Of a stretch of 64,000 bases of DNA, positions 3,044-3,904 are shown one piece after another. Position numbers and translations under genes: made by a program. A model generated the notes under the pieces. That model was not told the DNA's origin, ran no database searches, and saw only the letters and a program-made list of their open reading frames with translations. The stretch is from Escherichia phage ECO103 4-12-1, in sequence record OR844650; one strand, 5' to 3'. Each line of letters starts with the position of its first letter. Position 1 is the stretch's first letter.

Positions 3044-3326
3044 AATATTTCCTTTGCCATATCATGGGCTTAAAATCAATAACAGCTTTCTGTATCTTTT
3101 TTAATAATAAGACATCATAACCACCCGTGTCAATCACTAATTGCTGTTGGAACAATTCTTCATCGGATAATGTATTGAAATCTACAAAATAATCTGTAAC
3201 TATCGAATCATTTAAATGTGCCATGTACCAACCTGAACTTCTTGAATAAATCAAATTCCACCCATCGTCATCATCTTCTAATTCAACATAAATCATATCT
3301 GGGGTATACATCATTTTATACTTCAT
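3015..3326 (-). CDS. hypothetical protein, EEYFQ-motif family
   Basis: ORF track; motif 'SDEELFQQQLVID'; acidic N-terminus. Confidence 0.55.
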   Translation of the reverse strand: MKYKMMYTPDMIYVELEDDDDGWNLIYSRSSGWYMAHLNDSIVTDYFVDFNTLSDEELFQQQLVIDTGGYDVLLLKKIQKAVIDFKPMIWQRKYYDLEVPYQQ

Positions 3327-3822
3327 AACTATATCCTTGCATCAAAATATCATAAACGTTTGAAAGGTACGGAATTTTGATATAAAATTTAAAACCCTTA
3401 ATTAAAGGATTCGCGTACAATGAACTGAATAACTTTAGATAATGTATTTGACGAGGACTGTATAATAACGATTTCTGAAATAATTCAGAACTACAATCTG
3501 AACTAATATCAATTAAATCAATTCGTGCTTCTACTTCATCATTTTGTTTCAAATCATAAAAGAAATAATCGTTTGTGTTGACCCACAAATACCCTTCACT
3601 ATTTTCGTATATAACAGGAGATGCTTGTTCTGGATTGCCTTGGGCAAATGCTGCAAAACAAACTTTTGCATTACTTTCATCTTTAAACAAAAACGATAAT
3701 TTATCATATCTATCTTCTATGCGTAAATCACCTATATAAATGTACTTATGCATAGAATGATTATTCTTGAGCATAAGCATTACTGTACTAATCTTGTGTG
3801 CTAATAATTCTATCTCATTCAT
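3316..3822 (-). CDS. hypothetical protein, EEYFQ-motif family (paralog of 3894-4448)
   Basis: ORF track; N-term 'MNEIELLAHKIST', motif 'ELFQKSLL', C-term 'LMQGYSYEV'. Confidence 0.6.
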   Translation of the reverse strand: MNEIELLAHKISTVMLMLKNNHSMHKYIYIGDLRIEDRYDKLSFLFKDESNAKVCFAAFAQGNPEQASPVIYENSEGYLWVNTNDYFFYDLKQNDEVEARIDLIDISSDCSSELFQKSLLYSPRQIHYLKLFSSLYANPLIKGFKFYIKIPYLSNVYDILMQGYSYEV

Positions 3823-3856
3823 ATATTATTACCTATTGATGGATGCATCATCTTCT

Positions 3857-3904
3857 AATTCAACATAAATCATATCTTGGGGTATACATCATTTTATACT
3901 TCAT
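3857..3904 (-). pseudogene. frameshifted remnant of the 5' end of a 3015-3326-like gene
   Basis: ~75 nt near-identical to 3255-3330 with 1-nt insertion; translates MKYKMMYTPRYDLC* versus intact MKYKMMYTPDMIYVELE. Confidence 0.4.

Follow-up and report, generated by a model that had tools for sequence, protein, structure and literature searches.

Two diverged copies of a hypervariable accessory gene lie head to tail in the jumbo phage DNA analysed here, and the reading we favour, with a probability of roughly 60%, is that old alleles of this gene were stacked by one illegitimate event and that the resulting arrangement was then spread and lost through homologous recombination at a conserved gene boundary. 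The DNA, a 64,000-nt stretch of Escherichia phage ECO103 4-12-1 (OR844650) hereafter called the window, belongs to Asteriusvirus, the PBECO4/121Q-like jumbo myoviruses of E. coli and Salmonella. The genome it comes from is identical to no record in the collection searched, and the region under study is 99.4% identical to that of Escherichia phage BF17. A literature search returned no description of this locus.

Window positions 1-34 kb carry minus-strand genes throughout, as short open reading frames that are tightly packed or overlapping, with a G+C content of 30-31%. Read along the minus strand, g67 is followed by copy B, a short non-coding stretch, copy A and g103 (Table 1).

Table 1. Coordinates of the two-copy locus and its parts in the window.
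Feature	Position	Strand	Remarks
g67, upstream 67-aa gene	4445..4648	-	From the ORF list; the 23 nt copied ahead of copy A come from its last bases and the spacer (4449-4471)
Copy B, 184-aa B-type allele, PHROG 19795	3894..4448	-	Allele type found alone in PBECO4, 121Q, SP27 and others
Promoter-proximal direct repeat	3846..3935	-	3′ end of B, invariant gene boundary and remnant of the g103 start; repeat families D4 and D7
Remnant ORF MKYKMMYTPRYDLC*, 14 codons plus stop	3860..3904	-	First ~20 codons of g103 copied, then frameshifted by a 1-nt insertion
Novel (illegitimate) junction	3845..3846	.	g103, at about its codon 20, is fused to position -23 ahead of the gene start
Duplicated 5′ flank of copy A	3823..3845	-	9 nt of g67-type gene end, shared ATAGGTAA and A-type-specific spacer TAATAT, by comparison with A-only genomes
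Copy A, 168-aa A-type allele	3316..3822	-	98-100% nucleotide identity across all 12 two-copy records
Promoter-distal direct repeat	3269..3357	-	3′ end of A, invariant gene boundary and true g103 start
577-nt present/absent module	3269..3845	-	One direct repeat, copy A and the junction; missing in 19 of 32 related records, with flanks up to 100% identical to the window
g103, downstream 103-aa gene, PHROG 33987	3015..3326	-	Start shares 11 nt with the end of copy A and served as template for the remnant
g188, older paralogue, 188 aa, PHROG 19795	2477..3043	-	~25-30% identical; ends in the related motif VYECLMEILSYEAE

The first-pass annotation, made from the letters of the window, had described a duplicated junction at this place, and a repeat finder, pairwise alignment and shuffles all confirm it within the window. 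A 42-mer from the repeat occurs exactly twice, against none expected in 100 shuffles, and exact repeats within 2500-5500 reach 43 nt, where 200 shuffles gave none longer than 16, which places the duplicated junction far beyond chance. The repeat had been given as ~75 nt, 3830-3904 against 3255-3330. The duplication itself stands, and 3846-3904 and 3269-3326 are homologous, agreeing at 58 of 59 positions and differing by a single 1-nt insertion, without substitutions, whereas 3830-3845 and 3255-3268 are not. Identity instead extends into the 3′ ends of both genes, as far as 3935 and 3357, giving direct repeats of 89 and 90 nt that are 95.6% identical with the gene ends included. At the other end of the units, 3752-3845 and 4378-4471 form a 5′ block of 83.5% identity, and between the 5′ and 3′ blocks the A and B units align poorly, at ~62% identity with many gaps. 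Because 3823-3845 matches 4449-4471, and so copies the 23 nt upstream of B, the novel junction is placed at 3845/3846. The locus thus consists of two head-to-tail units (3269-3845 and 3846-4471) whose junction joins a 3′ flank to a 5′ flank and retains a truncated copy of the flanking gene, the 59-nt remnant of the g103 start. The remnant keeps the g103 start codon and Shine-Dalgarno sequence, after which the extra base (CCCCAAGAT vs CCCCAGAT) shifts the frame and yields the short ORF, 14 codons plus stop, that the annotation had also recognised.

At the protein level, the similarity of the two copies is concentrated at their ends, much as first described. Residues are identical at 19 of the first 22 positions, and the centre is divergent (43 of 102 aligned residues identical, with five indel runs). 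The near-identity claimed for the last ~30 residues was overstated, with 22 of 32 identical, and holds for the final 13 (12/13) and for an NPLIKGxKFYI block.

Related genomes, the comparison that the first-pass annotation had pointed to, differ in the presence or absence of the 577-nt module. The region is matched by 32 phage records, all Asteriusvirus, of which five span the entire 3-kb query; most others, lacking ~580 nt, align over 86-88% of it in two pieces. Loci were fetched from 23 of the 32 records and every member of the gene was extracted, revealing three discrete allele types. The B type (181-185 aa) occurs alone in PBECO4, 121Q, SP27, SHEFM2K, UB, CRJP21, SD-15, UE-S1 and others, the C type (186 aa) alone in ph0011 and Ecwhy_1, and the A type (168-171 aa) alone in phage A4, where it has 79% amino-acid identity to the window's A. 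The 32 records divide into five with B+A as in the window (BF17, JP4, slurp01, ELP-22 and TH47), seven with C+A (vB_Ec-M-J, hereafter EcMJ, EC.P1, Turkey3, fEgEco12, WPEC3, WPEC5 and CMSTMSU, the last a frameshifted, unverified record), one with A only and 19 with a single B or C. Throughout the 12 two-copy records, A is always second and the remnant always lies between the copies. A protein search added seven further contigs or genomes, some metagenomic, with A alone at 79-93% identity, in which an unrelated 116-122-aa gene precedes A and the remnant is absent. The predicted intermediate, g67 directly followed by A, was not found among the genomes examined.

Smaller differences among these records were also seen. 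The remnant of BF17 carries an additional 12-nt tandem duplication (ATGAAGTATAAA twice), and those of JP4 and ELP-22 one private substitution each, which is the kind of free variation expected if the remnant is a non-functional scar. B alleles differ by one 'DI' unit (DIDIDVEIE vs DIDVEIE, 184 vs 182 aa, at about 4270-4300 of the window, codons ~50-60 of copy B; loci L006 and L007), a difference that lies inside a GATATT/GACATT hexanucleotide run and therefore probably reflects replication slippage. In C-type genomes, g103 exists as a pair of neighbouring paralogues, each annotated for similarity to 121Q gp350 (3051-3709 in Ecwhy_1, locus L017; 2997-3655 in L019 and L020; 2997-3646 in L014), and the window has one.

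The junction was compared between the B+A and C+A genomes. Its right-hand side, (T/C)ATCCATCAATAGGTAATAATATATG, is identical in both groups, and the TATCCATCA part of it is the end of a PBECO4/UE-S1-type g67, which is absent upstream of the C-type genomes' own copy. That the two groups share this right-hand side, even though the native upstream sequence of C-type genomes differs, suggests a single origin, which is the simplest reading of these sequences. The left-hand sides show a 6-nt difference between the two clades, located at a GATGACGATG repeat able to slip. Copy A is 98.2-100% nucleotide-identical in all two-copy genomes, amid adjacent genes that are 72-80% identical between the window and the C+A genomes. 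By the Nei-Gojobori method, dS is 0.02 between the A copies of the window and EcMJ, and 1.28 between the genes adjoining them, B in the window and C in EcMJ. In addition, the C+A remnant differs from its own genome's g103 start at 13-14 of ~64 positions and from the A4-type g103 at 4-5, indicating that the module is foreign to its surroundings there. PBECO4, which lacks the module, has g128, g53, g67 and g103 genes 99.5-100% identical to those of the window, so that close relatives differ by the presence or absence of a small ORF bounded by short conserved repeats. When the first copies were placed in a neighbour-joining tree, the B clade and the C clade each contained genomes with A intermingled with genomes lacking it, from which it follows that the module was gained and/or lost several times.

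The gene ends show where such exchanges fall. All copies examined, whatever their type, share the conserved final 31-43 nt of the gene (ATGCAAGGATATAGTTATGAAGTATAAAATG...), and ph0011 alone departs from the 31-nt core. This boundary encodes the ...MQGYSYEV-stop of the upstream gene together with the Shine-Dalgarno sequence and MKYKM start of g103, and by coding for parts of two genes it is doubly constrained. Just upstream of the core, the allele-specific bases are shuffled: the A copies of EcMJ and ECP1 carry a B-type 3′ end, GATTTATTAATG, with a C-type partner in EcMJ; the B copy of TH47 carries a C-type 3′ end, GATCTTTTAATG...GGATAC; and the A copy of Turkey3 has a hybrid 3′ end. This shuffling indicates that crossovers cluster in the boundary and agrees with the cassette-like mosaic, recombining at gene ends, that the first-pass annotation had proposed. 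The C+A genomes consist, in order, of their own C-type 3′ end, the invariant core, the foreign remnant, the junction, A, a donor-type 3′ end, the invariant core again and their own g103, which fits exactly, base for base, what a boundary crossover would be predicted to leave.

The same annotation had considered conversion directed at the gene ends. The 3′ ends were indeed exchanged among allele types; the N-terminal identity is mainly the work of purifying selection. Over the first 22 codons, A and B have a dN/dS of 0.12 and a dS of 0.49 (four synonymous differences over ~11 synonymous sites), compared with ~1.0 in the centre, pointing mainly to constraint at the protein level and largely rejecting 5′-end conversion as the cause. 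A short conversion tract is hinted at by only three 5′ sites, which read GAGATA...GCA in two-copy A and B vs GAAATT...ACR in A-only genomes. In the window, the tracts in which conversion between the two copies would show are a 3′ repeat that is 95.6-98% identical and a 5′ end sharing only three informative sites; in the relatives, the 3′ ends of EcMJ A and TH47 B are not of the partner's type.

The divergence of A from B was estimated at a dS of 0.83 overall and ~1.0 in the centre (Nei-Gojobori), as deep as that of B from C, although saturation near 1 and the small number of sites in the end segments make relative dating coarse. The non-coding remnant, by comparison, has 0 substitutions over 58 positions. 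A remnant as old as the A/B split should be unrecognisable, and it must therefore be far younger or have been continually converted by g103; since the matching g103 type is absent from the C+A genomes, conversion within the genome cannot explain the remnant that they carry. Stand-alone A and the window's A differ by a dS of 0.09-0.11, typical of the flanks, and the two units lack the uniform divergence of copies derived from each other in place. The remnant and the stand-alone A thus favour alleles that already differed when they were brought side by side over a young duplication diverged in place. Together with a copy A that stays near-identical amid far more diverged neighbours, they also speak against the duplication followed by diversification in place that had first been suggested.

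The proteins belong to a family that, judging from sequence searches, is confined to this phage group. PHROG 19795 matches end to end with A (1.7e-32), B (5e-93) and g188 (1.7e-82). A word-indexed search of 5.8 billion proteins found 22 family members, all Asteriusvirus-like, and an exhaustive profile search of 1.8 billion representatives found five. Among PHROGs, A, B, g188 and their neighbours match only families of unknown function, and Pfam, NCBIfam, PADLOC and PDB sequences gave nothing significant for these proteins. Both A and B look like functional genes, with intact ORFs and dN/dS < 1. In an AF2 model of copy B (pLDDT 76.8, pTM 0.77), an N-terminal helix (residues 3-19) and C-terminal helices (127-183) are confident, and the middle is beta-rich, with low-confidence loops at 54-62 and 89-92 inside the centre, where A and B align poorly and are of unequal length; the model of copy A (pLDDT 51.5) was too poor for use. 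The helical termini may therefore act as a conserved scaffold enclosing a centre that is beta-rich and forms a variable surface, and the retention of the related C-terminal motif VYECLMEILSYEAE in g188 points again to a structural role of the termini. The phAPEC6 homologue, gp460c, is not among the entries in the text of the virion proteome table (PMC7247149), which fits a non-structural and probably early accessory protein. As a side observation, the family profile matches nine stretches of a 3956-aa metagenomic protein (P0024) at profile positions 63-119, the EGYLWYNTNDDYF region, and Pfam Reg_prop has a sub-threshold match to the same central region of copy A; this central motif may resemble a beta-propeller blade.

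The surrounding region is itself crowded with paralogues. On the minus strand at 545-6914, at least ten neighbouring genes (175, 180, 168, 188, 103, A, B, 105, 134 and 114 aa) share an EE(Y/F)FQxSL(V/I)xD-like motif and cross-match PHROGs 12674, 13866, 22855 and 21500; g103 and several neighbours have a weaker EE(Y/F)FQxSL motif and match one another's PHROGs. This suggests one old, much-diverged superfamily that expanded in place. Separately, 6904-12905 (minus strand) holds 26 consecutive paralogues of ~70-85 aa with an 'LGT..QE' motif (PHROG 4148, function unknown), and 34550-38903 (minus strand) holds three interleaved small families of six, five and four members, tandem paralogues encoded by 60-80-aa genes. 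The plus strand at 39426-57706 carries 17 tandem paralogues, most of ~375-440 aa, matching PHROG 4219, 'regulator of chromosome condensation' (RCC1-like), and these are probably the counterparts of the ~40-kDa 'DNA condensation proteins' of the phAPEC6 virion (PMC7247149). Across the 16 kb at 14000-30000, no phage record covers more than 94%, and most cover 25-50% in many pieces of 89-97% identity, a fragmentation that marks the whole small-gene region as a patchwork. This stretch was accordingly uninformative as a genome-wide background.

Taking these observations together, we infer the following order of events, direction of each gain and loss, and route of recombination. At least three old allele types (A, B and C) occur across the genus at this place in the small-gene region. 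In one illegitimate recombination, g103 would have become fused, at about codon 20, to position -23 ahead of the gene, giving a head-to-tail pair with a truncated g103 start left as a scar. The second unit may have been of the A type from the formation of the junction or have been replaced by an A-type allele soon after: two co-infecting genomes could have undergone an unequal, illegitimate crossover, or a true duplication could have been followed quickly by a change of allele in one of the units. The resulting 577-nt module (remnant, junction and A), bounded by the ~90-nt direct repeats with their 31-43-nt boundary core, would have been moved by homologous recombination at the boundary into both B-type and C-type genomes, through co-infection or as an excised circle; two crossovers with a two-copy donor, or a single one integrating such a circle, could have inserted it. 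Crossover within the boundary would repeatedly have deleted the module again, the window representing the B+A state. That homologies of 31-43 nt suffice for recombination in these phages is a proposal drawn from sequence comparison. This reading also requires several additional recombination steps, given the finely mosaic 5′ flank of A, and the highly mosaic character of the whole region leaves no clean genome tree on which gains and losses could be counted.

The strongest competitor, which we consider unlikely, is an old tandem duplication in place that diverged into A and B/C, with the ends and remnant kept alike by conversion and selection and the one-copy genomes, including A4, arising by deletion. 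It would account naturally for a junction of the tandem-duplication type in a window rich in tandem paralogue arrays, and the identities fit a ((B,C),A) topology (A-B 43%, A-C ~37-40%, B-C higher); conversion does occur, as the exchanged 3′ ends attest, and two-copy A has B-like synonymous variants in codons 3-8. It meets its main difficulty in the C+A genomes, where the remnant matches a g103 type absent from the same genome, excluding conversion within that genome as its source. The low dS of A between clades whose partner genes are so far apart means that A must have moved horizontally under this explanation too, and the A-only genomes have a different upstream gene and no scar. Separate origins of B+A and C+A, through recurrent duplications at a fragile site, could be read from the 6-nt difference between the left sides of the junction; slippage at GATGACGATG explains that difference, however, and the identical right breakpoint in both clades, the 23-nt flank foreign to C-type genomes and the same A sequence on both sides make such recurrence highly improbable.

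Conserved ends around a variable centre superficially resemble variable-region cassettes, and programmed diversification aimed at the gene centre, by DGR-like mutagenesis or silent-cassette switching, was therefore weighed as well. We regard it as every bit as improbable as recurrent duplication: the allele types are discrete and stable across isolates, the repeats hold no promoter, terminator or structured element, and the mismatches spread over all four bases. By the base in copy A, these number 57 at A, 60 at T, 41 at G and 28 at C, with five indel runs in addition, a pattern that rejects DGR-like mutagenesis, which would be adenine-only and free of indels. An assembly or sequencing artefact, in the form of a collapsed or chimeric repeat, has a negligible probability, as the arrangement recurs in 12 independently sequenced GenBank phages from several countries.

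Stacking of pre-existing alleles and their traffic through a shared boundary, the reading preferred here, has its closest described analogue, by our comparison, in PeSL-mediated modular shuffling. In T4-type phages, small ORFs of the hyperplastic regions are inserted, deleted, replaced or formed into mini-circles by way of the short conserved repeats on either side of them (Arbiol et al. 2010, PMC2839356; Comeau et al. 2014, PMC4122927). As there, small non-essential ORFs in a plastic region appear to be inserted, deleted and replaced between close relatives by recombination between short conserved repeats flanking the gene, a route deduced here from sequence, and excision between neighbouring direct repeats could yield a one-gene circle able to integrate at another place, the circle being hypothetical in the present case. 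Unlike PeSLs, the Asteriusvirus repeats are a dual-coding gene boundary, an ORF end with the next Shine-Dalgarno sequence and start, rather than a promoter with a stem-loop. Scanning 3269-3357 and 3846-3935 for promoters and terminators returned no sigma-70-like promoter and no terminator, with promoter-like sites below shuffle expectation, and RNA folding at the repeats gave no structure (z = 0.06-0.78). A PeSL-like regulatory cassette was thus rejected, and the locus would behave like a PeSL module without being one. A more far-reaching version, in which the dual-coding boundary (ATGCAAGGATATAGTTATGAAGTATAAAATG) acts as the coding-sequence equivalent of a PeSL or attachment site and excises a 577-nt single-gene circle integrable at the same boundary in any Asteriusvirus, seems to us doubtful; were the boundary such a site, it would offer jumbo phages a general route to trade and stack hypervariable accessory alleles and to enlarge tandem arrays.

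The locus can also be set against tandem gene duplication as a source of jumbo phage genome growth, an idea of Hua et al. in the form in which it is cited for the same phage group (PMC7247149). The window holds tandem arrays of 26, 17 and fewer paralogues, in keeping with that idea, and the scar at 3845/3846 is a direct footprint of a head-to-tail event. Unlike recent copies, however, the A and B units are separated by a dS of ~1 and are better read as stacked alleles that spread horizontally. Concerted evolution of tandem paralogues through gene conversion offers another parallel, with short near-identity tracts at the ends of diverged neighbours and exchanged 3′ ends; it differs in that the exchanged tracts in several genomes match the alleles of other genomes instead of the partner copy, and in that the N-terminal similarity of A and B exists at the amino-acid level only.

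Mosaicism centred on gene boundaries is classic for lambdoid phages and mycobacteriophages, and work by Hendrix, Juhala, Clark, Pedulla and others reportedly traces it to illegitimate recombination combined with homologous exchange at conserved boundary sequences. Here, likewise, module boundaries are gene boundaries, and a rare illegitimate junction would have been propagated by recombination in homologous flanks; unlike there, the inserted module is an allele of the neighbouring gene, so that the product mimics a tandem duplication. The locus is therefore an ordinary, well-documented kind of phage mosaicism and reveals no new mechanism or function. Its value lies in providing a clean and datable example of a single illegitimate junction reused many times by homologous recombination at a short conserved boundary, and in the natural pairs with and without the module (slurp01 vs SHEFM2K, BF17 vs PBECO4), which, together with the 577-nt module itself, give a handle for measuring recombination and testing gene function. 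It also urges caution in reading the tandem paralogues of phages as duplications in place, because allele stacking and cassette traffic can resemble them.
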